Notes under the pieces: model-generated
The model's database searches: none
What the model was told of the DNA's origin: nothing
The model's input: the letters and a program-made list of their open reading frames with translations, nothing else
From: Candidatus Omnitrophota bacterium
GTDB taxonomy: Bacteria; Omnitrophota; Gorgyraeia; Gygaellales; Profunditerraquicolaceae
NCBI GenBank assembly: GCA_041651035.1
Contig: JBAZKC010000001.1
Coordinates: 323,244 to 387,243, forward strand
Length of the DNA stretch: 64,000 nucleotides
Direction: 5' to 3'
Program-made: the position numbers and the translations under genes
Shown here: positions 37,620 to 56,971 of the stretch, piece by piece
Numbering within the stretch: position 1 is the first letter of the stretch
Layout of the letters: each line of letters starts with the position of its first letter

Positions 37620-38368
37620 TATTTACCCTCTAACTTTTTTACAGCCCCTAAGGCAATGGTGATTAAGTTTGATTCCGCCATATAATAAAGCGGGTTCATA
37701 AATCCCATTTCGCCGGTTATGACATTATCGCTTACCGCAAGTATTGAGCCGGCCTTAATATTGTAAGTCTGCGCGATAGTTAACAGCGTCGAGGAAACCA
37801 TATCCACGGCAATAGCGCCTTCTTTGCGTTTTGCTTCCACTATCTCCCTGGTCTCGCGTAAAAGAGCGTCTGTGGTCCAGACTGTGCCGCGGTGTATATT
37901 TAACCCCATGTCTTTGGCAACATCATATAAGGTATCGCTGATCTTTTTATCGGCAACTGTCTTAAAATCTTTATCCACATAGTAAGGCGTAACCCCGTCT
38001 CCGCGGATTACTTTATCCGCTATTACTAAATCCCCGACTTTGATATCCTCGCTTAAAGAGCCGCAGGTGCCAATACGAATAATATTCTGTATCCCGGAGT
38101 TACACATTACCTCGCTGGTAATAGAGGTATCGGTAGAGAATCTTCCGCCGTTTATGGCAGTAAGTTTGATCCCCTGATAGGTGCCGGTGTACATGGTGTA
38201 TTCCATAAAAGAAAAATTGCGCACGGGATTTTCTATTTTCTTGATCAACACTTCTAATCTATCTTTCGGGCCGGGGACAATGGCGTATTTGCCCACATCC
38301 TGCGGCCTCAACTGCACCATCTGCGTTAGATCCTTGCCTGTTAAATGAACATCCTTCTGCATCTGCAT
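37619..38368 (-). CDS. PNP/UDP-family nucleoside phosphorylase (candidate MTA/purine nucleoside phosphorylase)
   Basis: PNP_UDP_1 signature (IRIGTCGSL...GDLVIADKV). 249 aa. Start codon overlaps the mtnA-like stop. Confidence 0.6.
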   Translation of the reverse strand: MQMQKDVHLTGKDLTQMVQLRPQDVGKYAIVPGPKDRLEVLIKKIENPVRNFSFMEYTMYTGTYQGIKLTAINGGRFSTDTSITSEVMCNSGIQNIIRIGTCGSLSEDIKVGDLVIADKVIRGDGVTPYYVDKDFKTVADKKISDTLYDVAKDMGLNIHRGTVWTTDALLRETREIVEAKRKEGAIAVDMVSSTLLTIAQTYNIKAGSILAVSDNVITGEMGFMNPLYYMAESNLITIALGAVKKLEGK

Positions 38369-38601: not shown

Positions 38602-39297
38602 TTACATATTTTCAACCAATATCTTAGAATCCATACCCCAACAGAGTAAACGAACTAAAATTCTATCGCTAAGCCTTCGCTTTTCATCATCTTTTCTTAG
38701 GGGATTTATATAAATCTTTTTTATATATTCAAAGGGGTTAACATAAAAGACAACGCACGCTAATGATACTTTACTGCTTATTCTATATCCAAACCTATAT
38801 TCTTTATCTAGAAAATACTTTTTCCCTTGAAACTCCTTAAGTTTTCTAAAGGGGCTCTCTAAGCAATAGTTAGGCATTTCTGCAGCTTCTGGTGGAGCAT
38901 CGTCATCTGTATAGTAGGAAATCTTCGCGTCTTTAAATTCTTGAAATATCCCCTTTTCTAGGAAGTAGCTACCCTGTGAAGCAATCTTCTTCACATCGTC
39001 CACGGTTGACAAAATAGCAATATCATTATTTTGTGTATACAATTCAAAGAATGTCTGTATATCTTTATTTTTATCTTCATTCTCTAAGGAATGCCAACAA
39101 CTTACTAACCAGTCACCTGATGTCGTAGCAATTGTATTTTTTAATCTGGTTTCCTTCTCATGTGGGTCGCCATTCTTTTCTAAAGGAAGAACGAGATAGT
39201 ATTTGGTATTATGAAAGATGAAAGTACTGCTTTCTCCACTTTCAGGTAAAATATAATTGCTAAAGTCTTGAATTGAAATAATTCTGAGTAACTCCAT
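38602..39297 (-). CDS. Hypothetical protein in an AT-rich (~35% GC) island, no recognisable domain
   Basis: 231-aa ORF. Composition and codon usage differ clearly from flanking genes. Flanked by long non-coding stretches. Confidence 0.45.
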   Translation of the reverse strand: MELLRIISIQDFSNYILPESGESSTFIFHNTKYYLVLPLEKNGDPHEKETRLKNTIATTSGDWLVSCWHSLENEDKNKDIQTFFELYTQNNDIAILSTVDDVKKIASQGSYFLEKGIFQEFKDAKISYYTDDDAPPEAAEMPNYCLESPFRKLKEFQGKKYFLDKEYRFGYRISSKVSLACVVFYVNPFEYIKKIYINPLRKDDEKRRLSDRILVRLLCWGMDSKILVENM

Positions 39298-39552: not shown

Positions 39553-40464
39553 TTAAAGAGCAAGTATATTTCCCAAATTACCACCCAGGATATCTTGCTT
39601 ATCCTCTTGCGATATATCCAGGCTGTTTACCGCGTTTATCCCCGCGGCGACATCTTTCTTTGCCGGCCAGTCACTGCCCCAGAGTATATGTTTTGGGCCG
39701 AGCATCTCCAGCGCGGAGAGAAAATTAGTCTTTTTTATATCGCCGCTGGTATCTACGTAAATACTCCTTAAGAAATCCGTGGGCTTGCCTTTTAAGTCTT
39801 TGACAAAATTCATCCCTTTAAGCATCTGATAAGTGGCGTCAAAGCGGTGCTCCAAATGGGTGATCACTCCTCCGAAATAAGCAAAGATAAACTTCAACTT
39901 AGGATAATCACGCAGGATATCCGCCATCAAGAGTTTACCGATACAGATCGTAGTATCAAATACATACTCGGCAACCGGGGTCAATAACGGGTCCTGCACG
40001 CGTTCATAGCCGATAGGATTGACTATCTGCGAATGCACAAATATCGGGATTTTTGATTCTTCAGCCAGCTTGTATAAAGGTAAGAACCTCTGATCATCAA
40101 GATAAATACCGTTGTAGCTGCTGGCTAAAGAAATTGCCTTAAAACCAAATTCCCCTGTGGCGCGCTTGGCCTCTGAGACCATATCCTGCGAGTTATCTAC
40201 CGGCATGATCGCAGCACCAATGAACTTATCAGGGAACTTTTTAATAATCTTGGCTACATGGTCATTATAAATACGCGAGACCATACTCATGCTGCCGAGT
40301 TTTAAATGCGCGTCAGAGGTAGGATATGACAAAACCGCCTTATCAATGCCGGCTGCTTCCATCATCTTTACCTGGGCTTCAATATCTCCCCATGCCTTAT
40401 GGAAGAAATGGGCATTGTTGATGATTTCTTCTGGTAACCAATGCGAGTGGCTGTCTATAATCAT
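39553..40464 (-). CDS. Amidohydrolase-2 family (TIM-barrel metal-dependent hydrolase/decarboxylase, PF04909-like)
   Basis: N-terminal IIDSHSHW metal-binding HxH and further His/Asp ligands (VHSQ, HLEHRFD, GSDWP). 303 aa. Confidence 0.6.
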   Translation of the reverse strand: MIIDSHSHWLPEEIINNAHFFHKAWGDIEAQVKMMEAAGIDKAVLSYPTSDAHLKLGSMSMVSRIYNDHVAKIIKKFPDKFIGAAIMPVDNSQDMVSEAKRATGEFGFKAISLASSYNGIYLDDQRFLPLYKLAEESKIPIFVHSQIVNPIGYERVQDPLLTPVAEYVFDTTICIGKLLMADILRDYPKLKFIFAYFGGVITHLEHRFDATYQMLKGMNFVKDLKGKPTDFLRSIYVDTSGDIKKTNFLSALEMLGPKHILWGSDWPAKKDVAAGINAVNSLDISQEDKQDILGGNLGNILAL

Positions 40465-40465
40465 C

Positions 40466-40855
40466 CTAATGCTCCGTGCTTTTTAAGATCCTCTCGGTCA
40501 TCTCCTTCTCATAAAGCGCCTTGATCTCTTTTAGAGATGATACCCCAAGTGTCCTGGCAATTACTTTCTCTATTGCCCGCAGTTTTAAACACAAAAACGC
40601 GTAATCTCTTTTTAAAGCCTTGCCGTCATATTTTAATTTCAGGCCGGTTTTCTCCTTATTCTCGATATAGGCCTGAAAATCATCAACAAATTTCTTTATT
40701 TCCGGGCTCTGGCGGTTACGCAGTTCTTTTAAGATCAACCTGTCAATCTGGCTTTGCGTAAACTTACGCTCGATCTTATCCAATTCCTCTTTGACAGCCT
40801 TATACAGCCAGATGAGGTATCTCTTTTTAAGGTTTTTCAGGTCTTGCTTATCCAC
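40466..40855 (-). CDS. Hypothetical helical protein
   Basis: 129-aa Lys/Glu-rich ORF overlapping the amidohydrolase start. Confidence 0.35.
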   Translation of the reverse strand: MDKQDLKNLKKRYLIWLYKAVKEELDKIERKFTQSQIDRLILKELRNRQSPEIKKFVDDFQAYIENKEKTGLKLKYDGKALKRDYAFLCLKLRAIEKVIARTLGVSSLKEIKALYEKEMTERILKSTEH

Positions 40856-40862: not shown

Positions 40863-41471
40863 TTATTTCTTTACCAATTCCGCGTCGTCAAGATAAAGCG
40901 TGCCTTTTGCCGGCGGCAACGGTTCAAACTGGTAACTCTTTATCGGGAAATCTATCTGTCCATTCTTTTCCGCGGTCTGCGGCTGCCAGTCGTCGCGCGC
41001 GACAAATTCCTTGAACGGGCAGACTACCTGTTTCCAGCCTTTAAAATTATCTTCAAAAATATAGCGCGATATCTCACCGCCGTTATCTTTGATGTCAAAA
41101 GCGATCTTTGCCTTATTATCGCTGCCGTACATATAAAAAGCTATGGCATTGTATTTATTCCAGCTCACATCTCCTGCCTTCACCAGCCAGCCGGAATTCT
41201 TAGCGTCTAAATCATAACCTCTGGCTACCCAGATATATCCTCCGGGAACAGCATCATAAGTTACCTTAAGCGACTGTTTGCCTCCGTGCGCGATATCTGT
41301 AGCCGCGCTGACTTCCACGTTTGAACCATTACCAGCCCCGAAATCCACCGTTCCTTCGGGACCGCCGGTAATCATGATCTCAAAACCGTCAATTAATAAT
41401 ATCTCATCCGCGGCAAGGCTCAAACCTGCCAAACTTAAAACCATAACCAGGATCAAAACAGCTGTTTTCAT
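40863..41471 (-). CDS. Secreted beta-sandwich protein, carbohydrate-binding-module-like (CBM11/CIA30-like)
   Basis: Start moved to the internal ATG (41471) with a strong SD (AGGAGGAAGC). Signal peptide MKTAVLILVMVLSLAGLSLAADE. The ORF-track N-terminal extension is the translated leader element. Confidence 0.45.
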   Translation of the reverse strand: MKTAVLILVMVLSLAGLSLAADEILLIDGFEIMITGGPEGTVDFGAGNGSNVEVSAATDIAHGGKQSLKVTYDAVPGGYIWVARGYDLDAKNSGWLVKAGDVSWNKYNAIAFYMYGSDNKAKIAFDIKDNGGEISRYIFEDNFKGWKQVVCPFKEFVARDDWQPQTAEKNGQIDFPIKSYQFEPLPPAKGTLYLDDAELVKK

Positions 41472-41485
41472 AATGCTTCCTCCTT

Positions 41486-41532
41486 TGCCCACAAGGGCAC
41501 ACCCGCGCAATTCCGATAAGCGCGGGGTGTAA
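41486..41532 (-). promoter_or_regulatory. Conserved two-hairpin 5' leader element, copy B
   Basis: mRNA strand reads CCGCGC-uuaucggaauu-GCGCGG then UGCCC-uugu-GGGCA-AAGGAGG. One stem base pair covaries with copy A (U:A to C:G). Confidence 0.5.
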
Positions 41533-41572
41533 GTCCACAGGGACACGCCCGCCACTCCTTTATGGCGGGGCG

Positions 41573-42349
41573 TTATTTACCCGGGTGCGCTTGTTTAAAC
41601 GGTATTACCGGCGCGGTCCAGGGTGTCTGCTGGTTAATAATAGCGATCTCCAACGGACAAACATTTGCCGGCACAGTCAAAGCGAACTTCACCGCGTTTT
41701 CAATTGCCTCGGTTGTCATCAGGCGCGAGGTGTCTGCGGTAATTTCCTTTAATTTGCCGGTTAAGTCAGTATCTGTTACGCCCGGCAGCAAAGAGGTGAT
41801 CTTAATGCCGTGGTCGCGGATCTCCCAAAAGAGCCCTTTTAAGAAAGCACGCAAGCCCACTTTTAAAGAACTATAAACAAGGAAATTACGCGGCAGGGGA
41901 TCGCATAGAGTTGAACCGGAAACCATATTAATGATCGAGCCGCTTTTATTTTTTATCATATCGTTAATTACCAGGCGGATCAACCTGACATAACCTAAGT
42001 AATTCGTATGCGCCAATCTTTCAAAATCCTCAATGGGCTGCTCGTGGAACGGATACTGGCTGGAAACCCCGGCGTTATTGATGAGGATATCTATTTTGCC
42101 GAATTTCGCTTTTGTTTTATTAACCAGGTTTTCCAGGTCCTCTAATTTCGCCACGTCGCAGACCAAAGGCAGCACTTCTACTTTATATTTTTTGGCGATC
42201 TCGCCCGCGGTTTCCTCTAACGGGCCCTGCTGGCGCGCGGCAATGGCAAGATTAATGCCTAAACTCGCGCAGGTGCAGGCAATAGCCTTGCCGATACCGC
42301 GGCTTGCTCCGGTTATAATAGCGGTCTTCCCTTTCAATTCCGTGCTCAT
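41573..42349 (-). CDS. SDR-family ketoreductase (FabG/ActIII-like)
   Basis: TGASRGIGKAIA Rossmann motif, NNAG, and catalytic S...YSSLK. 258 aa. Last gene of the PKS-like operon. Confidence 0.75.
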   Translation of the reverse strand: MSTELKGKTAIITGASRGIGKAIACTCASLGINLAIAARQQGPLEETAGEIAKKYKVEVLPLVCDVAKLEDLENLVNKTKAKFGKIDILINNAGVSSQYPFHEQPIEDFERLAHTNYLGYVRLIRLVINDMIKNKSGSIINMVSGSTLCDPLPRNFLVYSSLKVGLRAFLKGLFWEIRDHGIKITSLLPGVTDTDLTGKLKEITADTSRLMTTEAIENAVKFALTVPANVCPLEIAIINQQTPWTAPVIPFKQAHPGK

Positions 42350-42359: not shown

Positions 42360-43484
42360 CTAAACTTTTGCGATCAATAACTTCCTATCCAGTAATAATA
42401 ATACTACCAAGCTAAAACCAAAACAAACAAAACTCAAAACAAAACTTTTCTGTATCAACACTCCTCCGATAGCCACACCCAGGCCTCCGGAGACAAAACG
42501 TATGCCGCTGTTTAAACTCGCTGCCTCATGCAGAAAATCCCCGGGCAGGTCAGTAAGCATAGTAGAAAGCCCGGCGTGGTTAAAAGTCCAACCCAGGCCC
42601 CAGATAATCATTAACAGCGCGATAAACAAAACCGGCAGTTTAAATGCCAGGCAAAATATGCTTAAGGCCATCATCAGGATCCCTAAATTTATCGTCTTTA
42701 CCCTGCCCAGCGTATCTGCCAAAATACCCCCGAATGTTTCACCGAAAACTCCGCTTAGGCTGGTCAATGTGATCAAAGAACTGATCAGGAACTGGGAAAA
42801 TCCTAAATCAGATGAAAAATATACTGCCAGCCACTGCTGCACGCCGTGATAGATCAAGCTGATAAAGAATATATAGGTAAAAACCAGAAAGAAATCCCTG
42901 TTTTTAAAGGCGCGCAAATAATTTATTTTAAAACCCACAGCATCTTTCTTAAAGCTCGGCAGGTAAAAATAGATAATAACGCATAATACAAACCCTAACA
43001 CCGCCGGAATAAAGAAAATCAGCCGCCAGTGGACAATCCCGCTTAAGGCCAGGCCTAAAAGAGACGCGATAAACGTCGCTCCAAAGAAAATCCCGACGAA
43101 TTTGCCCCGGGATTTGTCTTCCACGTGCCTGGCAATTAAAATAATCCCCAAAGGAATTACTGAAGCCCCGAATAACCCCATCATGAACCGGGCAAAAAAT
43201 AAGGAATTTATATTTTGCGCCAATGCCGCCAGCAGGTTAGCCAAAGAAAACAAACTAAGGCAGGTTAATTCTACCTTTTTGGCGTCAATCAAACGCACCA
43301 GCGGCCCGTAGACCAAGGCAGCTATGCCGTAAGGCAGCATATACAGCCAGATGATCCTGCCGGCAAATAATTGAGAAAGAGCGAAATCCCTGGCTATGGA
43401 AGGCACCAGTGCTGCAACTGCGGCGACATTAAAAGAAAGCAGCGCGCCTTCTAAACACAAGATAATAAAAGTAGACTTCTTCAC
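42360..43484 (-). CDS. MFS transporter (putative exporter of the cluster product)
   Basis: 374 aa, 12 TM helices. Overlaps the SRPBCC stop by 4 nt. Confidence 0.55.
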   Translation of the reverse strand: MKKSTFIILCLEGALLSFNVAAVAALVPSIARDFALSQLFAGRIIWLYMLPYGIAALVYGPLVRLIDAKKVELTCLSLFSLANLLAALAQNINSLFFARFMMGLFGASVIPLGIILIARHVEDKSRGKFVGIFFGATFIASLLGLALSGIVHWRLIFFIPAVLGFVLCVIIYFYLPSFKKDAVGFKINYLRAFKNRDFFLVFTYIFFISLIYHGVQQWLAVYFSSDLGFSQFLISSLITLTSLSGVFGETFGGILADTLGRVKTINLGILMMALSIFCLAFKLPVLFIALLMIIWGLGWTFNHAGLSTMLTDLPGDFLHEAASLNSGIRFVSGGLGVAIGGVLIQKSFVLSFVCFGFSLVVLLLLDRKLLIAKV

Positions 43485-43966
43485 TTCTTAGTTGCTTCTC
43501 TTTCAATAATTTCTTTAAAGATCTTCAGGTTGTGCCGTGAGCCTTCATTAATAAAGCCCTCGACCTGCTGGTCGGTAAATTTAGCTTTTTCATCCATTTC
43601 AAAATGCTGGATCCAAGCCATCTCCACTGGACAGAAGTCCGTGGTTTGGCATCCTTTAGCCAAAGCCATGCCTGCGGGCTTAGACGTATAAAGCCAGACG
43701 ATCTTCATATATTTAAAAGGAAACAACGGCTCCTGCCTTTGGGCATAAGTAAAATATTTGTCTTTAAAAAGCAGCCGCCAGGAAACCCAGGACTTCCCTT
43801 CTTCGTCAGTAAGGCGGAAGGTGATTTTATTGTCTTTCTTCTCCACGACTTCGGCTTTCTGGTATTCACTGCCAAATAATTCTGTCCAGCGCGGGATATC
43901 GTTAGAAATATCAAAAACCAAATCATACGGGGCGTTAATAATTATTGAATTGCACGTGTGTCCCAT
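43481..43966 (-). CDS. SRPBCC-superfamily protein (polyketide aromatase/cyclase-dehydrase type, Polyketide_cyc2-like)
   Basis: Start at the internal ATG (43966) with SD AAGGAGG. IINAPYDLVFDISNDIPRWTELF is the typical START/Bet v1-like N-terminus. ~160 aa. Confidence 0.55.
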   Translation of the reverse strand: MGHTCNSIIINAPYDLVFDISNDIPRWTELFGSEYQKAEVVEKKDNKITFRLTDEEGKSWVSWRLLFKDKYFTYAQRQEPLFPFKYMKIVWLYTSKPAGMALAKGCQTTDFCPVEMAWIQHFEMDEKAKFTDQQVEGFINEGSRHNLKIFKEIIEREATKK

Positions 43967-44020
43967 ATATAACCTCCTTGCGCAGAAAGCGCACACCGAC
44001 TCCTCCTTTAGAGTCGGGTG

Positions 44021-44821
44021 CTATTCTAATATCGCCACTACGCGCGACCAGGCAGCTCCGGTATTCTTTATCTTTACCGGAAAACAAACCACCTTAAAAC
44101 CAAAAGCAGGCAGTTCCTCTAAATGCGCCAGGCGCTCAATATGTATAAATTCCCTTTTCCTGCCGTAAAAATGCGCCGGATATAACGCGCCCGTTTTTTT
44201 GTTATCCAGAAATTCTTTCAGCATGAATTTATAAGGCCGGTCAATACCCATGGTGTCTGTGCCGAATATTTTTACACCCCTGTCCAGCAAATAATCTATC
44301 GCCGAAATATCTATCCCCGGGTAATCTGTAAAATAACGGGGGCTTCCATAAAATTTATCGGCGCCGGTATGCAAAAGCACGATATCCAGGTTTTTAAGGG
44401 AATAATTTATCTTTTTTAGCGCGCTTTCTAAGTCCTGGGCGGTTATGGTTTCGTTTGGCGTCTTATGCGTAAAGTCAAGATGCACGCCACTAGACATGCA
44501 CCAATCTAATGGGATTTCTTCCGCGGTCTTTGACGGCCTGCCTTCTGATAATGAACCGTAATGAAAGGAGTAATCTAAGTGTGTGCCGACATGAACCGGC
44601 GAATGGACTATTTCTAAAGACAGGAATTCCTGGCCAGGGAGGTCTTCTTTCCGGAGGATACGCTTTCCCAGGATATATTTTATCCTGCCTAAGAAAGTCT
44701 TACCCATAATTACGCGGTTAAACTTTTCCACGCCCTGCTTATGAGACACTCTCTGGATATTTACAGGGTGCACCTCAAAAGCCTTTTCATCAATAGGCAG
44801 GCTTAAGTCAACTATCTTCAT
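44021..44821 (-). CDS. Cyclase-family protein (PF04199; kynurenine formamidase/polyketide cyclase-like)
   Basis: HxGTHxDxPxH motif as HSPVHVGTHLDYSFH. 266 aa. Confidence 0.65.
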   Translation of the reverse strand: MKIVDLSLPIDEKAFEVHPVNIQRVSHKQGVEKFNRVIMGKTFLGRIKYILGKRILRKEDLPGQEFLSLEIVHSPVHVGTHLDYSFHYGSLSEGRPSKTAEEIPLDWCMSSGVHLDFTHKTPNETITAQDLESALKKINYSLKNLDIVLLHTGADKFYGSPRYFTDYPGIDISAIDYLLDRGVKIFGTDTMGIDRPYKFMLKEFLDNKKTGALYPAHFYGRKREFIHIERLAHLEELPAFGFKVVCFPVKIKNTGAAWSRVVAILE

Positions 44822-45055
44822 TTAACTTAATTTTGGTTGGATCACCTTTTCAATATCGTTGATAGTAGAAGACTTGGTTATTTCTTTAGGGCTTAATTTT
44901 ATATTAAAGGTTTTTTCCAGCGCGATAACGGTTTCTACCATTTCCGTGGAATCCACGCCTATGCTGTCCTGTAGCGCTGCGTCGTCTTTTAACTCTTCAA
45001 GCTTCACCTTCAATAATTTCACTAAAACATCTTTGATCTTTGGTTTTATATCCAT
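44822..45055 (-). CDS. Acyl carrier protein
   Basis: 77 aa. Phosphopantetheine-attachment motif IGVDSTEMVETVIALE. Confidence 0.8.
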   Translation of the reverse strand: MDIKPKIKDVLVKLLKVKLEELKDDAALQDSIGVDSTEMVETVIALEKTFNIKLSPKEITKSSTINDIEKVIQPKLS

Positions 45056-45070: not shown

Positions 45071-46531
45071 TTAGATGTGCGCTTCGCCTTTAGTGGCTCC
45101 GGCTTCCCATTTTCCTACGCCTGCCATAACATCCTGGAAACAAAGCTTGGCAAGAGGATCAAAATTGCTTTCCATGATCCGGTTGATCCTGCCGGGTTTA
45201 GAAAAGAATTCGCGCATACACCAGGAACCCAGGCGGCCCAAATCTTCGGTAGTAAGATGATCCGTCGGGATAACCGGATGCAGGAAATCCCAGGTACTGA
45301 AATCAACTTTTTTAGGGTCGATCCAGTTTTTCTTCATGGCGATCCTCCACATCGGGGAATTCGGCGCGGGAGTAACGTAGCCGACCCAGAGGATATCCGG
45401 ATCAACCTGGTCCGTAAACTCAAAGCGCTGCTTGATGATCTCTTCGGTGTCGTAATCAAAACCCATCATAATATCGGCGACGATCGCGATGTCATGCTTG
45501 CGCAGAAGCTCAATGGTTTTTTTGATCTGGTCTAACGTAATACCCTTGGCTATTCTCTTAAGTTCTGACTGCGTGGTAACCTCGATGCCGAATACCCCCA
45601 TAAACAACCCTGTTTCTTTCATTAAGGGAAGTACGGATTCACAATTGACCCAGTCAATGGCGCGGCCCAGGGAAACCCATTTAATATCGATCTTTTTTTG
45701 CTTCTTTAATTCGCAGAATCTCCTGACGCGTTCGGGGTCTACGTTAAAATTATCATCCTGGATAACCACTACCTTTACCCCGTATTTATTCTGCAGAAGT
45801 TCCATCTCCTCTATTACGCGTTCCGGGGATTTGGCGCGCCAGGTCAAGAAATCAGAGGGGTGGCGCGGATCATACTGGTCCCATTCATAACAAAAGGTGC
45901 AGGCAGAAGGGCAGCCGCGCGAGGTCACCATGTCCACAAACGGCTTCCAGTAAGTATGCCCCACGTATTTATCCATGGGAAACAGGTCATATGCCGGTAA
46001 AGGCAATTTATCTAAATCCTGCATAAGCGGTTTGTGCGGCCCCATGACAATCTTACCGTCAATGCGCGAGGTAACGCCGCCGACATCCTTAAGGTTTTTC
46101 TTTTTATCTATAGCCTCAATTAAATCGCCAAAAGACTCCTCTTCGCCCATGACCACAAAATCAACAGCCGGATTCTCTTCCAGCGTCGGAACAGGCATTG
46201 CCGAATACCATAAGCCGCCGAAAATTATCTTTGTTTCAGGCAGTGCCTGCTTGATCTTCTCGGCTGCTTCCTTAAAATGCCTTAATACTCCGTAGCCGCC
46301 ATAGCCATGCAGTTGTTCGCCCATCACCACCACATCGGGATTTTTTGATTTCACCTGTTCGACCAGTTCATCCATCGGGGTTTGAAAGGCCTTACCGTCA
46401 ATAACTGCCACATCCGCGTAACCCCGTTCTCGGACATATGCTGCCCAGTGCGCGTAAAGCTGATTAGGTGACCTGTGTATCCCGTGTGTTGCCCACGCGC
46501 CTACTTTTGGCATTACAAATAGAATCTTCAT
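45071..46531 (-). CDS. B12-binding-domain radical SAM enzyme (class B)
   Basis: N-terminal Rossmann-like B12-binding domain. CxxxCxxC as CPSACTFC. 486 aa. Confidence 0.7.
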   Translation of the reverse strand: MKILFVMPKVGAWATHGIHRSPNQLYAHWAAYVRERGYADVAVIDGKAFQTPMDELVEQVKSKNPDVVVMGEQLHGYGGYGVLRHFKEAAEKIKQALPETKIIFGGLWYSAMPVPTLEENPAVDFVVMGEEESFGDLIEAIDKKKNLKDVGGVTSRIDGKIVMGPHKPLMQDLDKLPLPAYDLFPMDKYVGHTYWKPFVDMVTSRGCPSACTFCYEWDQYDPRHPSDFLTWRAKSPERVIEEMELLQNKYGVKVVVIQDDNFNVDPERVRRFCELKKQKKIDIKWVSLGRAIDWVNCESVLPLMKETGLFMGVFGIEVTTQSELKRIAKGITLDQIKKTIELLRKHDIAIVADIMMGFDYDTEEIIKQRFEFTDQVDPDILWVGYVTPAPNSPMWRIAMKKNWIDPKKVDFSTWDFLHPVIPTDHLTTEDLGRLGSWCMREFFSKPGRINRIMESNFDPLAKLCFQDVMAGVGKWEAGATKGEAHI

Positions 46532-46553: not shown

Positions 46554-47786
46554 CTATTTACCTTTTTCAATCACCAATACAGAATTTATGCCGCCTCTCC
46601 CGCGGGAGATTATTAAAGCCTTATTTATTTTATGCTCCCTGGCTTCTTTTGTAACATAATTCAGGCCGGGGAAGACAGGAGTATCTAAATTCAACGTGGG
46701 GGGTATCAAACTGTTCTCCATCGCCAGGATCGCGATGATCAAGTCCACGGCGCCTGAAGCACCCAGCAGGTTCCCGAACATAGACTTAGGGCAGCTGACA
46801 GGTATACTTTTAAGTTTCCCGCCAAAAACATTCTTTAATGCTTCTATCTCTGAATTATCCCAGATATCTACAGCTAATCCGTCTAAACTAATATAATTAA
46901 TCTCATCCGGGGATGCTTCTGCGTCGGCAAGGGCAGTCTTGATCGCCCGGGCCAATTGCCGGCCGTCTAAGGCGGGATTGATCCTGTCTTCTCCATCGCA
47001 GCTTGTCCCGAATCCGGAAACATACGCTAATATATTCGCCCCGCGGCCAAGCGCGCGCTCTCCCGGCTCCATTACCATAATGCCGGCACCCTCTCCGATA
47101 ACAAAACCGCTGCGTTTTTTATCAAAAGGCCTGTAGGCAGCCTGGGGGTGGGCGTTATCAGTAGATAACCCGCCGTAAGTATTGCAGCATAAAAGCGCGT
47201 AAGGCGTAACCGGCGCTTCCATGCCGCCGGCCAGGATCATATCTAATTTTTGCTTAGCCAGAGTCTTGCGCGCGTAACCAATGGCCTCAATTGAACTGGC
47301 CCTGTCCGCTACAATAGTCTTGCTAAAACCCTTTATCCCGTAATAAATGGAAACCTGGCCCTGTGGCGCTGCCGGAAACCACGCCGAGGCCATATATGGG
47401 GAAACCCCTTCACGGCCCTCCAGATATAGATCGCGTAATTCCGTCTCCGCGTATAACCATCCGCCTATGGCATTACCTAAAAATATGCCTACCAGGTTAG
47501 GGTCTTCTTTCTTGATGTCTATACCCGCATCCTGCAAGGCAAGCTCTGAGGCGATCAGCGCCATATGCGAAAAAGCATCGATCTTTTTTAAAAGGCGCTC
47601 TGAAACGTGGCTGTATTTTTCCAGGTCATCTATCTGTCCGGCGATATGAGCGGGATATTTAGAGGCGTCAAAACGGGTGATCTCCTTAATAAACGACCTG
47701 CCGGCTTTGATATTGGCCCAGAATTGCCGGCGGCCTATTCCCGACGGAGCAACTATGCCTAAACCCGTAACCGCGACTTTTTTCAC
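46554..47786 (-). CDS. Ketosynthase-fold protein lacking the Cys-His-His triad (KS-beta / chain-length-factor-like)
   Basis: Aligns along its length with the adjacent KS. The active-site Cys position reads IVADRASS. The His positions read CDGEDR and SLDGLAV. Its start overlaps the KS stop by 1 nt. Confidence 0.7.
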   Translation of the reverse strand: MKKVAVTGLGIVAPSGIGRRQFWANIKAGRSFIKEITRFDASKYPAHIAGQIDDLEKYSHVSERLLKKIDAFSHMALIASELALQDAGIDIKKEDPNLVGIFLGNAIGGWLYAETELRDLYLEGREGVSPYMASAWFPAAPQGQVSIYYGIKGFSKTIVADRASSIEAIGYARKTLAKQKLDMILAGGMEAPVTPYALLCCNTYGGLSTDNAHPQAAYRPFDKKRSGFVIGEGAGIMVMEPGERALGRGANILAYVSGFGTSCDGEDRINPALDGRQLARAIKTALADAEASPDEINYISLDGLAVDIWDNSEIEALKNVFGGKLKSIPVSCPKSMFGNLLGASGAVDLIIAILAMENSLIPPTLNLDTPVFPGLNYVTKEAREHKINKALIISRGRGGINSVLVIEKGK

Positions 47787-49048
47787 TATACCTCCAGACG
47801 TTTAAGGATTAATGATGAATGTATGCCTGAGAATCCGCTTGAAGTCTTAAGGATAGTCTTTACTTTCTTGGCCCGTGCCACATTGGGGATGTAATCCAAG
47901 TCGCAGCGGGGATCTTTTTCCTCCTGGTTTATCGTGGGAGGAAGAATATCTTTCTGAAAGATCATGGAACAAACTACCAGCTCTATGGCATTGGCCGCGG
48001 CCAAGGGATGGCCGATCATGGATTTTAAGGAACTGGCCGGAAGTTTATACGCGTAATCCCCAAAGACCATTTTATAAGCGGAAGTCTCAAATATATCATT
48101 CATGCGCGTGGATGAACCGTGCGCGTTAATGTAATCTATGCCTTGCGGTTTTATATCCGCGTCTTTAAGCGCTAAATTAATACAATTAGCCATGGCTGAG
48201 CCGTCGGATGGCAAATCCGTCATATGGAAGGCATTGCAGCTTGTGCCAAAACCCGCTACTTCAGCGTAAATATGGGCGTTGCGTTTTAAAGCATGGCCTA
48301 GCTCTTCCAGGATCAATATGCCTGCCCCCTCTGAAAGTACAAACCCATCGCGCTTGTTATCAAACGGCCTGCTGGCAGCTTCCGGCCGGTCATTACGCGC
48401 GGACAGTACATTAACCACGTCAAAGGCGCCAAAGGTAACTGGAGTGATCGGCGCCTCCGCGGCTCCAGCGAACATTATGTCCTGTTCACCGTCCTGAATG
48501 ACCTCTAAAGCAAACCCTAATGAATCAGTTCCCGCGGTACAACCCGTAGAAAGCGTGTTACAAATACCCTTTAACCCGAGCCTAGCTGATATTTCAATGG
48601 AAGGCGTATTAAACATCGCCGCGTCATACAGATCCGGCCTTACTTTTGACGGATCAATGGGATTCTTGCCGTCGTCGGTAACTAAGGCGAATTCCTCTTC
48701 CATATATTTTGTTCCGCAGATAGCATTGGCAAGGCAGACCCCGATGCGCTGGGGATCTTCTTTAGATAAAACTAATCCACTGTCTTTTAAGGCCATATCT
48801 CCGCAGACTACGCCAAACTGCACATATCTATCCATGCGCACCGCTTCTTCATGCGTAAGGCCGAGTTTGAAAGGATCAAAATCGCGCACTTCCGCGGCGA
48901 TCCTGGTATTAAATAGAGATACATCAAAGCCATCTACCAGTTTTACCGCTGATTTTCCCGATGACATTGCCTGCCAAACGTTATCCTTACCTATGCCGTT
49001 AGGCGAAACCACCCCTACTCCCGTAATAACCACTCTTCTCTTTGCCAT
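47786..49048 (-). CDS. Beta-ketoacyl synthase (KS-alpha / FabF-like condensing enzyme)
   Basis: Active-site Cys (LSTGCTAGTDS) and both His (FHMTD, NAHGSST). Also GHPLAAAN. 420 aa. Confidence 0.8.
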   Translation of the reverse strand: MAKRRVVITGVGVVSPNGIGKDNVWQAMSSGKSAVKLVDGFDVSLFNTRIAAEVRDFDPFKLGLTHEEAVRMDRYVQFGVVCGDMALKDSGLVLSKEDPQRIGVCLANAICGTKYMEEEFALVTDDGKNPIDPSKVRPDLYDAAMFNTPSIEISARLGLKGICNTLSTGCTAGTDSLGFALEVIQDGEQDIMFAGAAEAPITPVTFGAFDVVNVLSARNDRPEAASRPFDNKRDGFVLSEGAGILILEELGHALKRNAHIYAEVAGFGTSCNAFHMTDLPSDGSAMANCINLALKDADIKPQGIDYINAHGSSTRMNDIFETSAYKMVFGDYAYKLPASSLKSMIGHPLAAANAIELVVCSMIFQKDILPPTINQEEKDPRCDLDYIPNVARAKKVKTILKTSSGFSGIHSSLILKRLEV

Positions 49049-49049: not shown

Positions 49050-49652
49050 TTACTTTTCTTTATCCTCTTGGACCCGCCTTACTTTAAAAACAATATTTCC
49101 CCCGTCGGGACAAGTGACCGTATCTATGGAGTCAGGGTCTTCCATAAAGAAGAACTTGGCTCCGAAATTAAGCGCGAAAAGCGCCGGAAATGCCGTATGG
49201 AACGCCGCGCCGCAGAAACCGGGGATACATTTCAAACCTTGCGTCTCCCATTTATCCCCGACTTTATAACCAAAAGCGCATTTACCTTTTGCCTTGGCTA
49301 CCTCAATTATCATTTTCTTAGGGTTAGGCCCCTTAAAATCAGGGTCCTTAGGCAATACTTTGACCTTACCCTCTTTGTCTAAAACCTCCGCCTTAAATTC
49401 CAGCTTACCTCCGTCGGGGCAAGTTACTAACAATGAATGCTGGTTATCGCGGAAGCCGAATTTTGCCCCAAAACTTAAAGCATAGGCAACCGGAAAAAGC
49501 GCGTGGGCCAACCCCAGGCAAAAATACTTAGGCGCGTGCGTGAAATCTTCAAGTACCAGCTCATCGCCGATCTTATAACCATGATAACAATGGCCGAAGA
49601 CATTGGTTACCGTAAGTTTTAATTTAGGAAAAGGAGAATTGATCTCGTTCAC
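49050..49652 (-). CDS. Tandem-duplicated small Cys-rich domain protein (TIGR04076-like, x2)
   Basis: Two ~95-aa repeats, each with C..GYK.GD, C.G.(A/C)..A....FP...AL.FGAKF and VTCPDGG..(E/V)FK. The family assignment is from memory. Confidence 0.45.
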   Translation of the reverse strand: MNEINSPFPKLKLTVTNVFGHCYHGYKIGDELVLEDFTHAPKYFCLGLAHALFPVAYALSFGAKFGFRDNQHSLLVTCPDGGKLEFKAEVLDKEGKVKVLPKDPDFKGPNPKKMIIEVAKAKGKCAFGYKVGDKWETQGLKCIPGFCGAAFHTAFPALFALNFGAKFFFMEDPDSIDTVTCPDGGNIVFKVRRVQEDKEK

Positions 49653-50647
49653 AGGCCTTTTATATTATTCAGTAATTCTTCCTTGGTAAAAAACTTCCGC
49701 GTTTGTTCAACTTTATGCACCATCTCCACTAATTTCTTATTCAAAGGAGCGTTTAGTTTATACTTCTCGGCTATAAGCAGAAACTCGCCATTTATATAAT
49801 CGATCTCGGAAGCCTTTCCTCTTTTTATGCTCTGCAATATTGAGCCGTAAAGCGGCTCTTTGTTTAGATTAATCATGATACCGGAAAATATCTTCGCTGC
49901 TTCCAGATTAGGCATAGAAGTCAATTTTGTCAGCCTCTCTAATGGGAAATCCGGCAAAGACAACAACCGGATACCTGCTTTATCCATGATATCCAGGCCT
50001 TCTTTCCATATGGCAATACTGATACTGCTAATATCTATATCCAAGAACGCTTCCTGCATGCTTACGCCTAGTATCGCCGGTATACAATTATTGGCATTAA
50101 CGAATATCTTAAGGTACTTCATTCCCTTTAAGTCTTCTGCTACGATAGTAGGGAAGGCTTTATCTAAAACCCGGCTTATTTCTACCGTCTTTTCATCATT
50201 ATTAGTGAACGCCCTGCCAATGATCCAGCTGCCTTCAAAATTATGCGCTATCTTGCCCCGCTCTAAATAAGTAGCGCCAAACATGACAATGCTGGAGATT
50301 ATATTCTCAGCAGGAACATACTTGGCAACTATACCATCTGCGGCTATCCCGTTTTGAGTAGTCAAGATCGTAGCACTGCCGATAAATCCCAGGTTCTCTT
50401 TTACCGCTCGCTCAACATCCTGTACTTTTGTAGCCAGGATCACCAAGTCAGGGCTTTGGGATAGCTTTTCCTGCGCGTCTATCCGGATATTAAAATCACC
50501 CCTTACTCCGGAAATCTGTAACCCATTTTCTTTTATCGCCCTTATCGAATCAGCGCTGCCCGATAAAGAGACATCCGCGTTTTTAAGTTTTAAATACCCT
50601 GCCACCAGGCCGCCTATTGCCCCGCTTCCGACTACCGCTATCTTCAT
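49649..50647 (-). CDS. Ketopantoate reductase family (PanE/ApbA-like) NAD(P)H-dependent reductase
   Basis: MKIAVVGSGAIGGLVAGYL Rossmann N-terminus and the ApbA C-terminal helical domain. 332 aa. Confidence 0.65.
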   Translation of the reverse strand: MKIAVVGSGAIGGLVAGYLKLKNADVSLSGSADSIRAIKENGLQISGVRGDFNIRIDAQEKLSQSPDLVILATKVQDVERAVKENLGFIGSATILTTQNGIAADGIVAKYVPAENIISSIVMFGATYLERGKIAHNFEGSWIIGRAFTNNDEKTVEISRVLDKAFPTIVAEDLKGMKYLKIFVNANNCIPAILGVSMQEAFLDIDISSISIAIWKEGLDIMDKAGIRLLSLPDFPLERLTKLTSMPNLEAAKIFSGIMINLNKEPLYGSILQSIKRGKASEIDYINGEFLLIAEKYKLNAPLNKKLVEMVHKVEQTRKFFTKEELLNNIKGL

Positions 50648-50665: not shown

Positions 50666-51004
50666 TTATTGCTGCCGCCTGGGAAAACCGTATTTTTTAT
50701 AATCAAACCCTGTCTGCTCTAATAACCTGATCATCATGCCATAGAATGGCGAAGGCACATCGCAAAAAAAGGCAGCTATCACGTCCTGCTCTTCAATCTG
50801 CTTAGCTTGCCTGAGTGAGGCGTTCTCCTGGGCTCTCTTAGTTACCGCTTCTTCGGTAATGTGACGGTGGAAAACGGGGATCTTAGAGATCATCAGCTGG
50901 AACTTTGTCTTAACTTCATTATTCCAATCCATGGGATTTTCCCTTCTCTGGTAATAGTAAAATTTTACTATTCCAATTTTACCGACCAAGCCAAATTTTG
51001 TCAA
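50666..51004 (-). CDS. PCP-reductase-domain-like small protein (PF08369-like); true start may be the ATG at 50932
   Basis: WNNEVKTKFQLMISKIPVFHRHITEEAVTKRAQENASLRQAKQIEEQDV matches the W..EA...L..IP.FVR...E..A pattern of the BchB/ChlB C-terminal domain. Confidence 0.35.
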   Translation of the reverse strand: MTKFGLVGKIGIVKFYYYQRRENPMDWNNEVKTKFQLMISKIPVFHRHITEEAVTKRAQENASLRQAKQIEEQDVIAAFFCDVPSPFYGMMIRLLEQTGFDYKKYGFPRRQQ

Positions 51005-51047: not shown

Positions 51048-51566
51048 TCAGACTGTTTTTATCAGGGTCAAGAGGAACTTTGATTCCGTTTCTACCATTT
51101 GGAGGTTATGTTCCAGTATGCGCTTCAAGGGTAATGGTATCCCCTGTTTATACTTCAGGCGAAGCATTTGTTTTAGGTCGCGGGATAATTTATTTAAAAT
51201 AAATACCCGGCCCTTTAGCCTCCTGCGGGCAATATTGGAATTTATATAGGACAAGAAATACAGGCTTAGATCTAAGCTAAAATGCGGGCGTTTAAAATCC
51301 AGGAAGCTGGCGGAAAGCAGCTTATCAAAACGCGCCTGCCCGCTCTTGCTTAAGGCGTAGACAAAACGCTGCGGGCGCCTGCCTTGTTTGGCTGTGTGCT
51401 TTATCACTAACCCTTTTTTCTCTAATAAATTTAAAGGGTAATATATGGACTTTGGCTCTAAGCCGGCGAATAGAGATAAGATCTCTTTGATTTTCTTCTT
51501 TATCTCGTATCCATGCTTGGGGCTCTCTTTGAGCAAACCCAACAGCAACAGCTCATGCTCGATCAT
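51048..51566 (-). CDS. PadR-family transcriptional regulator
   Basis: LLLLGLLKESPKHGYEIKKKI...SIYYPLNLLEKKGLV winged-HTH PadR signature. 172 aa. Confidence 0.75.
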   Translation of the reverse strand: MIEHELLLLGLLKESPKHGYEIKKKIKEILSLFAGLEPKSIYYPLNLLEKKGLVIKHTAKQGRRPQRFVYALSKSGQARFDKLLSASFLDFKRPHFSLDLSLYFLSYINSNIARRRLKGRVFILNKLSRDLKQMLRLKYKQGIPLPLKRILEHNLQMVETESKFLLTLIKTV

Positions 51567-54100: not shown

Positions 54101-55630
54101 ATGCTGGCAAAAGTTTTTAGTTTTGGGCTCTTAGGTATAGAAGCGTATCCTATTGAGATAGAGGTAGATGTCTCCAGGGGCCTGCCGGCCATAACCCTGG
54201 TTGGCATGGCAGACACAGCCATAAGAGAAAGCAGGGAACGGGTTAAATCCGCTATTAAAAATTCGGGTTTTGAGTGGCCGGCTGAAAGAATTACTGTAAG
54301 CCTGGCACCTTCAGATATAAAAAAAGAGGGCTCTTCTTTTGATCTGGCTATAGCTTTAGGCATCCTCGCTGCGACAGAACAATTAAGCGGTGAAAGCCTT
54401 AAAGATTATTATGTGTTAGGGGAATTATCGCTTGATGGGTCTCTCAGGCCGACTCGGGGTATTTTGCCTATAAGCGTAGCGATCTCTAAGTCTAAATCTA
54501 AAAACATTATTACAGCGGTTCAGAATGCCAGAGAGGCGGCCGCGGTTTCAGGGATCGGGGTCTGGCCGGTAAAAACCCTGAAAGAAACAATAGAATTCTT
54601 GCATAATCCAAACACAACCCGGCCTTTTAAACTGGATATAGCCGGGTCGTTTAAGCAAAATTCAAGCTACGCGGTGGATTTTTCAGAAGTTAAAGGCCAG
54701 TATTTGGCTAAAAGGGCTTTGGAGGTAGCGGTTTCTGGCGGGCACAACGTGCTGATGATCGGCCCTCCGGGAAGCGGCAAGACTATGCTGGCTAAAAGGA
54801 TACCCACGATCATGCCCGATCTGACTTTGGATGAAGCATTAGAAGTAACCAAAATACATTCTGCAATGGGGACATTACCTAACGGAGAAGGCATAATGGG
54901 GATAAGGCCATTCCGCAGCCCTCATCACAGCATATCCAGCGTAGCCTTAATTGGCGGCGGTTCTATCCCTCAACCCGGAGAAATAAGCATGGCTCATCAA
55001 GGCGTCTTATTCCTCGACGAACTTCCGGAATTCCACCGCGATTGCCTGGAAGCATTAAGGCAGCCCCTGGAAGATGAATTAATCCGCGTATGCCGGATAA
55101 GAAAATCCTTTATTTTCCCCGCTTCCTTTATGCTGGTCTGCGCCATGAACCCCTGCTCTTGCGGTTATTACACTGATTTGCATAAAACCTGCAGGTGTAA
55201 TCCGAATAAAATCTCAGGCTACATGAGTAAGATCTCCGGGCCGCTATTGGACAGAATAGATATACATATTGAGTTGCCGTCAATAAAATATACGGAGCTT
55301 GTTGACACAAAAGAATCCGAATTTTCAATTGCTATTAAAGCGCGGGTAGCAAAAGCACGCTCTATACAAAACAAGCGCTTCAGGAATGACGGGATCTTTC
55401 ATAACGCGCGAATGAATACTAAATTAATCAGAAAATATTGCGCCCTGGAAGATGAGGCTAAAGAATTACTTAAGATGGCAATGACGGAACTAGGGTTCTC
55501 CGCGCGCGCTTTTGATAAGATACTTAAAATCAGCCGGACTATCGCTGATTTAGCTGAGTCGGAAATTATTCTAGTTGAGCATATTTCCGAAGCAGTGCAG
55601 TATAGGAATCTGGATAAACAGCACTTATGA
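54101..55630 (+). CDS. YifB/ComM-family Mg-chelatase-like AAA+ ATPase
   Basis: N-terminal Lon-like domain (LLGIEAYPIEIEVDVSRGLP), Walker A (GPPGSGKT), Walker B (LFLDELPEF) and a Cys cluster. 509 aa. Confidence 0.8.
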   Translation: MLAKVFSFGLLGIEAYPIEIEVDVSRGLPAITLVGMADTAIRESRERVKSAIKNSGFEWPAERITVSLAPSDIKKEGSSFDLAIALGILAATEQLSGESLKDYYVLGELSLDGSLRPTRGILPISVAISKSKSKNIITAVQNAREAAAVSGIGVWPVKTLKETIEFLHNPNTTRPFKLDIAGSFKQNSSYAVDFSEVKGQYLAKRALEVAVSGGHNVLMIGPPGSGKTMLAKRIPTIMPDLTLDEALEVTKIHSAMGTLPNGEGIMGIRPFRSPHHSISSVALIGGGSIPQPGEISMAHQGVLFLDELPEFHRDCLEALRQPLEDELIRVCRIRKSFIFPASFMLVCAMNPCSCGYYTDLHKTCRCNPNKISGYMSKISGPLLDRIDIHIELPSIKYTELVDTKESEFSIAIKARVAKARSIQNKRFRNDGIFHNARMNTKLIRKYCALEDEAKELLKMAMTELGFSARAFDKILKISRTIADLAESEIILVEHISEAVQYRNLDKQHL

Positions 55631-56971
55631 TCTATAGGAACAATTTCCCAGTAATGCGTTCACGCGGGCGGAACGGATATGAGAGTCATTAGACCCATCC
55701 GCGAGAAACCAATTGGTAACATAATCTTCCGGCAAAACCATACCCCACTTCTTATGGTTTTCAAAAAGATCGCTTCCCTTTAAGACATAACAAGGGTTAA
55801 TATGAATACAGTCGGTTAATGCGCGTATTTTATTAACGAATCTTCGGGTTTTTTCAAAATCTTCCTCTGACTCTCCGGGGTGGCCGATCACAAGATTCAC
55901 GGAAAACGAAATCCCCGCGTCTTTTGTGTATTCAAGCGTCCTCAAGGCAAGATCTGTGTCAAAAGATTTCTTCATAATTTTAAGCACACTATCAGACCCG
56001 GATTCTATACCAAAGTTCAGCCGCTCAGCTCCGGCTATCTTCATTTTTAATAAAAAACCCTTTGTCATTTCTTTCCTTACCAATATATGCCCTCCCCAAT
56101 TGACCCCCATTTCCCTGACGGCCATTAGGTCGCAAAACATGGAGAATCCCTCCATGTTCCCGTTAATAAGCGAATCATTAAGGTAAACGAATTTAAGCTT
56201 GCTAAAACGGCTTTTTTGAAACGCTATCTCCTCAACCACTGAAACCGCGCTTCGAAAACGGTGAGGGCTCCAATGGCTCTTTTCTATACAGAAACTGCAA
56301 TGCGCTATGCATCCACGCGAAGTTGAAATCGAAATCTTTTCTGTTTGCTCATTCAGGAATCCGAAATCCGCGAAAGGCAGCTCATCCAGACACCGGACTA
56401 GCTCTTTCTGCCCACAATCAAGAGGCCCATCTCCTGTTTTTATAAGAAAACCCTCCGTGCGCCAGTCTTCATTATTACTTATTTTCCTTAAAAGCTCGGG
56501 CAAAACAATCTCCGCCTCTCTTAGACATACGGCGTCAAACATTCCTGTACTCATCAAGTATTCTGGGCTGAAGTTTATAAAACATTCCGGGCCCCCGGCA
56601 AGAATGATTTTCTCGGGATACCTTTCCTTAATTTTCTTTATTAATTCTACAGCAAAAACAAAATTCAGGCTCTGTAATGTAAATCCCAATATCTCGAACT
56701 TTTCTAGACTACTTATTGCGCCCTCAATAATGTTTTTATTGCGTCCCAGGAAAGATAATACCTCTTTCTGCGATTGCCAAAATCCGTACGGATTAGAAAT
56801 ATTCCAGAGATACTGTTCTTGCGGCAGCAAGTCGTGAAAAGAGCGGTTAAAGTCAAAACACTCTGCTTCGAAACGCTTTCCTTTCAATACCGCGCATATA
56901 AGGGCGATATTGTAGGGGGGGAACTCAATATCCCACATCGGACATTGCACTAATGCTAATTTTTTTTCCAT
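55625..56971 (-). CDS. B12-binding-domain radical SAM enzyme (second copy in the window)
   Basis: B12-binding N-terminal domain. CxxxCxxC as CIAHCSFC. 448 aa. Confidence 0.65.
   Translation of the reverse strand: MEKKLALVQCPMWDIEFPPYNIALICAVLKGKRFEAECFDFNRSFHDLLPQEQYLWNISNPYGFWQSQKEVLSFLGRNKNIIEGAISSLEKFEILGFTLQSLNFVFAVELIKKIKERYPEKIILAGGPECFINFSPEYLMSTGMFDAVCLREAEIVLPELLRKISNNEDWRTEGFLIKTGDGPLDCGQKELVRCLDELPFADFGFLNEQTEKISISTSRGCIAHCSFCIEKSHWSPHRFRSAVSVVEEIAFQKSRFSKLKFVYLNDSLINGNMEGFSMFCDLMAVREMGVNWGGHILVRKEMTKGFLLKMKIAGAERLNFGIESGSDSVLKIMKKSFDTDLALRTLEYTKDAGISFSVNLVIGHPGESEEDFEKTRRFVNKIRALTDCIHINPCYVLKGSDLFENHKKWGMVLPEDYVTNWFLADGSNDSHIRSARVNALLGNCSYRS

Follow-up and report, generated by a model that had tools for sequence, protein, structure and literature searches.

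The 64,000-nucleotide stretch of DNA analyzed here (the window), part of contig JBAZKC010000001.1 of a Candidatus Omnitrophota bacterium, carries two adjacent ketosynthase (KS) genes whose products, KSα and KSβ, probably form the core of an aromatic type II polyketide synthase (PKS) of the non-actinomycete branch called 'ancestral' or 'non-oxidative', a branch that also holds the clostrubin, dendrubin, AQ-256 and pyxidicycline systems. KSα retains a complete active site and KSβ is a chain length factor (CLF) without one. An earlier note on this DNA had singled out the pair for the Asp-Arg dipeptide that KSβ carries at the position of the CLF glutamine, and had read it as the sign of a different mechanism of priming or chain-length control. 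We find instead that Asp-Arg is the usual state in the non-actinomycete CLF branch and no sign of a new mechanism. The pair is an uncharacterised but already catalogued representative of the ancestral non-actinomycete type II PKSs, and its novelty resides less in the two proteins than in their context: a TIGR04076 protein, a B12-binding radical SAM protein (B12-rSAM) and a trio of nucleoside-processing genes.

Gene coupling and active-site residues

KSα (47786..49048, reverse strand, 420 aa, ATG start) and KSβ (46554..47786, reverse strand, 410 aa, GTG start) are each spanned end to end by the domains PF00109 and PF02801 (E 1e-43 to 1e-27). They align with each other along their full length, as the earlier note had stated, in 414 columns at 33% identity (E 1e-82), a similarity far beyond chance. 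The coupling junction (47784..47795, reverse strand) reads ...GGAGGtaTAGTGaaa. The TAG stop of KSα (47788-47786) and the GTG start of KSβ (47786-47784) share a single nucleotide, the G common to both in TAGTG, which is the overlap originally described, and a GGAGG motif (47795-47791) is found 4 nt upstream of the start codon (GGAGG-tata-GTG). The two genes overlap or nearly abut (-8 to +7 nt) in about 67 of 78 related loci, a kept coupling that speaks indirectly for joint action of their products. A natural fusion, P0132, joins a Cys-bearing KSα and a KSβ with Asp-Arg in one protein of 824 aa, which supports the physical pairing of KSα and KSβ.

The catalytic triad of ketosynthases is composed of a Cys, the His of the (N/E)AHG(T/S) motif and the His of KSxxGH; the histidine of FHMTD is conserved in these enzymes and lies outside the triad. 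KSα displays the full active-site set with Cys170 (STGCTAG), His310 (NAHGSS), Lys342 and His347 (KSMIGHP). The earlier note had credited KSα with the Cys and both His, correctly for Cys170 and His310, and had taken the second catalytic histidine to be that of HMTD; the true one is His347 of KSMIGH. The same columns in KSβ are occupied by Arg162 (VADRASS, preceded by Asp161), Asp302, Lys334 and Asn339, and the column of His275 in the FHMTD motif of KSα by Asp267. The downstream protein, as claimed, has neither the nucleophilic Cys nor any of these histidines, only the conserved Lys334 being retained. Since Cys and both triad histidines are missing, the conclusion that KSβ is catalytically dead stands despite the correction concerning HMTD.

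The alignment register of KSβ was checked against FabF, the actinorhodin (act) CLF (1TQY_B) and AntE (6SMO_C) in short and full-length comparisons, the act CLF sequence used being identical to residues 10-415 of 1TQY_B; all three alignments rule out a wrong register. VADRASS of KSβ falls on VAEQAGG of the act CLF, so that Arg162 coincides with the CLF glutamine (Gln161 in the act protein) and Asp161 with the Glu before it; Asp-Arg does occupy the position proposed, with neither Cys nor Gln there. KSβ also departs from the KSQ-type priming domains, in which Gln replaces the Cys and both histidines are kept, by its combination of Arg162, Asp302 and Asn339. Glutamine at this column is not universal among accepted CLFs: AntE carries Asp, and the CLF of clostrubin producers Arg.

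Placement among the chain length factors

The best solved relatives of KSα are the actinorhodin KS (1TQY_A, 398 bits) and, second, AntD (6SMO_B, 380 bits) from the anthraquinone (AQ-256) PKS of Photorhabdus. FabF structures reach at most 344 bits and Iga11, the KS of the ishigamide polyene system (6KXD_A), 227 bits. By these sequence scores, KSα is nearer to the KSα proteins of PKSs than to the FabF of fatty-acid synthesis. Against the fabF equivalog model TIGR03150, KSα and KSβ score 459 and 375, respectively, both under the cutoff of 494.

KSβ scores 256 bits against the act CLF and 223 bits against the act KS. Its full-length identity with 1TQY_B is 35%, and the two proteins share several signatures beyond the Lys. 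The AWF motif (W136, F137) is common to KSβ, the act CLF and AntE, extending in the three to AWF(P/Y)A, where FabF reads MI or similar; an acidic residue precedes the active-site column in KSβ and 1TQY_B and is absent from FabF; and the column of the first triad histidine (His1) holds Asp in KSβ as in the act CLF (ADGAG), again unlike FabF. Differences from the act CLF are Arg for Gln and Asp for Glu at the dipeptide, Asn where the act protein has Arg at the column of the second histidine (His2), and the tunnel-gate residues, which are W110/A113/L117 in KSβ, F109/T112/F116 in the act CLF and W/G/L in the clostridial CLF discussed below. Unlike the actinorhodin producer, the host of the window is an anaerobe from outside the actinomycetes, and its tailoring genes are different ones. 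The AntD/AntE pair offers a non-actinomycete parallel with a CLF that likewise lacks the Gln and displays an AWFPAA.QGQ motif like that of KSβ, although AntE is shorter (371 aa) and reads Ser-Asp where KSβ has Asp-Arg. The ant cluster contains its own ketoreductase, cyclases, CoA ligase and phosphopantetheinyl transferase (PPTase).

In a neighbor-joining tree, KSβ falls within the CLF clade that includes the act CLF, and KSα in a sister clade composed of the partner KSα proteins; FabF lies outside both clades, and the KSα and KSβ subtrees are parallel in topology. The AlphaFold2 (AF2) model of KSβ (pLDDT 88.8) superposes on FabF and 1TQY_B at TM 0.90-0.94 and places Arg162 at the start of a helix spanning residues 161-177. 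A fold search with KSβ returned the generic KS fold (FabF, 1TQY), which confirms the fold and does not discriminate between families. On its sequence, KSβ is best assigned to the CLF lineage and not to a decayed FabF or KSα. The proposal that the two genes encode a KS/CLF heterodimer is upheld by the CLF signatures, the tree, the PDB matches of KSα, the presence of an acyl carrier protein (ACP) along with cyclases in the cluster, and the natural fusion. Fold, residues, family placement, synteny and conservation are demonstrated here, and from there on we infer the heterodimer itself, a salt bridge between Arg162 and Asp302, the order of tailoring and the class of product.

Several points weigh against this reading. 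Over its full length, KSβ finds its top scores with FabF, at 285 bits compared with 256 for the act CLF. The tree is a rough one, built with BLOSUM62 from 19 sequences and without support values, and the interface loops of the KSβ monomer model (residues 105-136) have low confidence. The cluster was found to contain neither a malonyl transferase nor a PPTase, and its short-chain dehydrogenase/reductase (SDR) was rejected as a ketoreductase of the ActIII C9 type, a PDB search having returned generic SDRs only. Finally, the invariance of the Arg among Omnitrophota, described below, also fits a functional role, and few independent clades underlie the covariation of columns 162 and 302.

A heteromeric pair annotated as '3-oxoacyl-ACP synthases' in unpublished PDB entries 9S5H and 9S5I (chains B and C) matches KSα with 292 bits and KSβ with 227 and 183 bits. 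It may represent a relevant new KS/KSβ structure; we found no paper for 9S5H.

Distribution and meaning of the Asp-Arg pair

The 120 best homologues of KSβ all originate from Candidatus Omnitrophota metagenome-assembled genomes (MAGs), are full length and 79-88% identical, and all read DRA(S/G)S, which rules out that KSβ is a pseudogene or a decayed duplicate. A genome scan with a diverse alignment confirmed 571 relatives, of which the best 80 species-level loci, ranked on KSβ identity, were compared. All 80 are Omnitrophota, some of them mislabelled as Planctomycetales, with 77-87% identity, and the taxonomic breadth of the Asp-Arg pair was therefore drawn from representatives at 50% clustering, the members of their clusters and the encoding contigs. 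High identity, synteny and the kept gene coupling across related loci indicate that strong purifying selection acts on KSβ, which is no copy in decay.

Asp-Arg recurs among these representatives in many KSβ-like proteins at 37-59% identity, with Asp-Lys, Glu-Arg, Asp-Thr, Asp-Ser, Asp-Ala and others as minority states. Its carriers include Clostridium beijerinckii and C. puniceum (P0125, WP_077837155), Ktedonobacter racemifer, Archangium violaceum, Deltaproteobacteria MAGs, the cyanobacterium Leptolyngbya and Bacillus cytotoxicus. The earlier note had asked for a check of the pair's conservation; it is invariant in the 120 Omnitrophota sequences and recurs in these other bacteria. The closest sister cassette, found in Nitrospirota, has Asp-Ser instead. 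The His1 column holds Asp or Glu in about 94% of the Asp-Arg sequences (243 of 258) and Asn in the Ser-bearing Nitrospirota set, a pattern suggestive of covariation between columns 162 and 302.

The clostridial proteins are the most instructive of these relatives. Their CLF, 43% identical to KSβ, likewise carries Asp-Arg with an acidic residue at His1, although it retains the second His where the window's protein has Asn339; the partner KSα is 46% identical, and both hosts, Clostridium and Omnitrophota, are anaerobes. Both species make clostrubin, and the clostrubin CLF ClrB has been placed in the ancestral clade (PMC7693217). We infer from species and cluster that P0125 is ClrB.

Our literature search found no paper discussing an Asp-Arg motif in CLFs, and a 2026 preprint on KS/CLF evolution held nothing on the Gln column. 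The KS-CLF pairs of Candidatus Omnitrophica and Nitrospirae were already listed in a 2023 catalogue of roughly 6,000 CLFs (PMC10132072). It would be tempting to read an Asp-Arg pair in place of Gln as evidence for a different mechanism, as the earlier note did. However, most members of a broad CLF clade outside the actinomycetes have the pair, among them the CLF of C. beijerinckii and C. puniceum; the Nitrospirota orthologues have Ser and AntE has Asp, a residue also given in a figure legend of PMC6638757; and the Asp at His1 already exists in the act CLF itself. Because Asp-Arg is so widespread and replaced by Ser in Nitrospirota and Asp in AntE, a new mechanism of priming or chain-length control is unsupported.

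The strongest rival explanation is that KSβ keeps a catalytic or binding role, in which Arg162, together with Asp161 and Asp302, would hold a carboxylate, either that of malonyl-ACP or that of an unusual carboxylated starter, and promote decarboxylative priming in place of Gln. The invariance of the Arg in all 120 close homologues, its dominance across the wider clade and the retention of Lys334 agree with such a role, as does the core cluster, which contains no ketoacyl synthase III (KAS III), acyltransferase or obvious starter-loading enzyme. Yet both triad histidines needed for decarboxylation of the KS type are gone (Asp302, Asn339), the Nitrospirota sister cassette has Ser within the same gene order, and the functional CLF AntE has Asp (PMC6638757). 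The clostrubin producers' Asp-Arg CLF sits with a KAS III of its own, so that the dipeptide is not tied to one mode of priming. An Arg-based decarboxylase is unlikely since both histidines are missing and systems that are functional or orthologous have Ser or Asp in place of the Arg; we consider the whole proposal quite improbable. The distribution of the dipeptide is of more use than the pair itself: it shows that Gln is neither the ancestral nor the general state of the column, Asp-Arg dominating outside actinomycetes, a result relevant to the long-standing argument about whether the CLF glutamine primes synthesis.

The gene cluster and its conserved context

The pair is embedded in a cluster of genes transcribed in the same direction, all on the reverse strand. 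At its head is a PadR-family regulator (51048..51566, syntenic in 34 related loci), followed by a small DUF2621-like protein (50666..51004; PF11084, E 4.4e-6, just under cutoff). The latter open reading frame (ORF) was called from a TTG codon; its Nitrospirota homologues (43-46% identity) begin at a Met matching residue 25 (MDWNNE...), and since homology starts there, the true start of the gene is probably the ATG at 50932. Next come an ApbA/ketopantoate-reductase-like NAD(P)H oxidoreductase (49649..50647), with syntenic counterparts in Omnitrophota, in Nitrospirota and at L087, a locus of a 'Deltaproteobacteria' MAG, and a tandem TIGR04076 protein with two matches to that model (49050..49652), directly upstream of KSα. 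KSβ is followed by the B12-rSAM (45071..46531), located between it and the ACP (44822..45055, 77 aa, with a GVDSTEM serine motif; NCBIfam ACP models at E 1.6e-12, under their cutoffs), which occupies the same place in 61 of the 80 related loci. The B12-rSAM resembles BchE (214 bits, cutoff 481), then HpnJ, under both cutoffs, and was assigned to neither family.

Two cyclase genes of the OxyN and TcmN types follow: a PF04199 'putative cyclase' (44021..44821), in the slot of OxyN, itself assigned to this family, with orthologues (41-49% identity) in the clusters of Clostridium, Nitrospirota, cyanobacteria and L087, and an SRPBCC protein (43481..43996; PF03364, Polyketide_cyc), a TcmN-like aromatase/cyclase kept in all compared clusters. 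An MFS transporter (42360..43484) and the SDR, a candidate ketoreductase (41573..42349, median 85% identity in related loci), come after them. The operon ends with a CBM11-like protein (40863-41555), a 129-aa protein without assigned function (40466-40855) and an Amidohydro_2 enzyme (39553-40464), all three syntenic in related loci and the last also present in the Clostridium and L087 clusters. KS-CLF-ACP-TcmN-OxyN is how ancestral type II PKSs outside the actinomycetes are organised (PMC7693217). Core chromosomal genes flank the cluster, namely those for ATP synthase, accA, SecA, RF, MurJ and leuS.

A plausible working of the system can be sketched from these genes. KSα, with Cys170, His310 and His347, would catalyze every decarboxylative Claisen condensation, using malonyl units loaded on the ACP of the cluster. 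KSβ, made in a ratio of about 1:1 through translational coupling, would form an obligate heterodimer with it and supply the far wall of the polyketide tunnel, setting chain length without a catalytic site of its own. Arg162, at the N-terminus of the 'nucleophile' helix, most likely pairs by charge with Asp302 and fills the vestigial pocket; priming must then be independent of Gln, carried out most simply by KSα itself or using a starter from elsewhere. The nascent chain would then be folded by the TcmN-like and PF04199 cyclases and tailored by the SDR, the ApbA-type reductase, Amidohydro_2 and the B12-rSAM, the last perhaps catalyzing C-methylation or an O2-independent oxidation or cyclisation, before the product is exported by the MFS transporter.

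The gene content also bears on two weaker rival explanations. The pair might be a FabF with a dead FabF forming an elongation heterodimer for fatty acids or 'ladderane-like' lipids together with the B12-rSAM. Such a reading could draw on the 'ladderane' biosynthetic gene cluster calls (antiSMASH) reported for Omnitrophota MAGs (PMC9902471), the adjoining accA, the FabF structures at the top of the KSβ scores, the housekeeping level of conservation of the cluster and a weak match of the rSAM to the lipid-biosynthesis model TIGR04072 (79 bits, cutoff 360). It is highly improbable: no FabF comes as near to KSα as the act KS and AntD do, KSβ carries CLF-specific motifs, the scores of TIGR03150 and TIGR04072 stay under their cutoffs, two polyketide cyclase families are encoded in an operon with no dehydratase or enoyl reductase among the annotated domains of the conserved cluster, and orthologous core genes are found in the cluster of the clostrubin-producing clostridia. 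Hardly more credible is a highly reducing type II PKS making a polyene, as in the aryl polyene (ApeO:ApeC) and ishigamide (Iga11:Iga12) systems of Gram-negative bacteria, whose KSβ is Cys-less and without the canonical Gln, for even with an SDR and an ApbA-type reductase at hand KSα matches Iga11 far less than the act KS (227 vs 398 bits), the conserved cluster has no FabZ/FabA-type dehydratase, and TcmN-like and OxyN-like cyclases are present and conserved.

The locus is strongly conserved. Wherever the contig extends, the 80 related loci keep the order DUF2621-like, ApbA, TIGR04076, KSα, KSβ, rSAM, ACP, cyclase, SRPBCC, (MFS), SDR and, further on, Amidohydro_2. The median identities, in loci that had been ranked on KSβ identity, are 82% for KSα, 80% for KSβ, 83% for TIGR04076, 85% for the SDR and 88.5% for the B12-rSAM. 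This last gene is the best conserved of the cluster and, on contigs that reach far enough, invariably comes after KSβ. The cluster genes, 80-88% identical across loci, are at least as conserved as the adjacent accA (77.5%).

Outside Omnitrophota, uncharacterised cassettes of Nitrospirota and 'Deltaproteobacteria' MAGs (loci L083, L086 and L087), whose KSβ is 53-59% identical to that of the window, follow the same order with DUF2621-like, ApbA, TIGR04076 (two copies), KSα, KSβ, ACP, cyclase and SRPBCC. L087 has orthologues of 13 cluster genes, including ApbA and the tandem TIGR04076, and shares with the window a B12-rSAM (52% identity), the MFS transporter and Amidohydro_2; it differs by an rSAM located upstream and by two extra aldehyde:ferredoxin oxidoreductase (AFOR) genes. 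The Nitrospirota loci have no B12-rSAM, and contain AFOR, FMN_red and U32 peptidase genes instead, along with their Asp-Ser CLF. In L083 and L086, a U32 peptidase with a fused DUF2621-like region and a tungsten-type AFOR stand before the cassette and an FMN reductase after it. U32 proteins act as O2-independent hydroxylases in quinone biosynthesis, and the Nitrospirota-type loci hint at anaerobic oxygenation of the polyketide.

The clusters of both clostridia run KS-CLF-(TIGR04076-ACP fusion)-PF04199 cyclase-SRPBCC-...-Amidohydro_2-ACP-KAS III and share with the window TIGR04076, the PF04199 and SRPBCC cyclases, Amidohydro_2 and an ACP. Unlike the window, they contain KAS III, PPTases, CMD, DUF362 and DUF169 proteins and a TIGR04076 fused to ACP; they lack the B12-rSAM, the ApbA-type reductase, the DUF2621-like protein and the nucleoside trio. 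Proteins of the TIGR04076 family thus adjoin KSα/KSβ in three phyla: as a fused tandem in Omnitrophota and L087, as two separate genes in Nitrospirota, and as the ACP fusion plus an extra copy in C. beijerinckii. Their locations elsewhere include L083 3224-3861, L086 8127-8684, and L081 11260-11787 and 15656-15946. This recurrent proximity suggests that TIGR04076 acts directly with the ACP or with KS-CLF. Its AF2 model, of moderate confidence (pLDDT 69.5), matched no fold in a search of the PDB.

The trio mentioned above is composed of a PNP_UDP_1 phosphorylase (37619-38368), an MtnA-like isomerase (36681-37619) and a class II aldolase with an SCP2 domain (35698-36684), all on the reverse strand. 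It is syntenic in many Omnitrophota loci, often next after Amidohydro_2, and recurs in L087 at 18447-21242 as PNP, MtnA-like isomerase and aldolase II(+SCP2). An aldehyde dehydrogenase and an acyl-CoA ligase continue after the trio (32722-35701), and the five genes together resemble a salvage route for 5'-deoxyadenosine or methylthioadenosine of the dihydroxyacetone phosphate shunt type. That the trio travels with the PKS cluster suggests a functional link with the B12-rSAM step. The junction between Amidohydro_2 and PNP, conserved elsewhere, is interrupted in the window by a 231-aa ORF (38602-39297, reverse strand) that has no Pfam or NCBIfam match and no homologue in the 80 related loci, and looks like a genome-specific insertion.

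The pair brings an uncultured and strictly environmental phylum into the 'ancestral' type II PKS branch, with a cassette that is shared with Nitrospirota and Deltaproteobacteria MAGs and conserved like housekeeping genes within Omnitrophota. A bolder view, which we regard as unlikely, is that the cassette is vertically inherited and makes an aromatic polyketide on which anaerobes depend physiologically, such as a redox carrier resembling a quinone, and not an antibiotic; the Asp-Arg CLF would be primed independently of Gln with the help of TIGR04076, and the nucleoside trio might process an adenosylated polyketide intermediate, doing more than salvage 5'-deoxyadenosine. The conserved context could in any case lead to new O2-free chemistry, given the B12-rSAM between CLF and ACP, the association of TIGR04076 proteins with KS/CLF/ACP in three phyla and the nucleoside/5-deoxyribose trio co-travelling across phyla. 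KS/CLF pairs of the ancestral branch are soluble in E. coli, where that of Ktedonobacter was expressed as a soluble heterodimer (PMC6638757), which makes them useful for engineering.

Two further elements of the window deserve mention. A second B12-binding radical SAM protein (55625-56971, reverse strand, 448 aa), about 23% identical to the one in the cluster, is encoded upstream beyond comM. An nhaA-I (Na+) riboswitch (RF03057, 8536-8593, reverse strand; 41.2 bits, gathering score 37) immediately precedes a trehalose operon (3561-8487, reverse strand) encoding a Cache-like + GT20 trehalose-6-P synthase, a trehalose phosphatase, a DUF5752 protein and a TreT-like glycosyltransferase, a placement that would put compatible-solute synthesis under sodium control.

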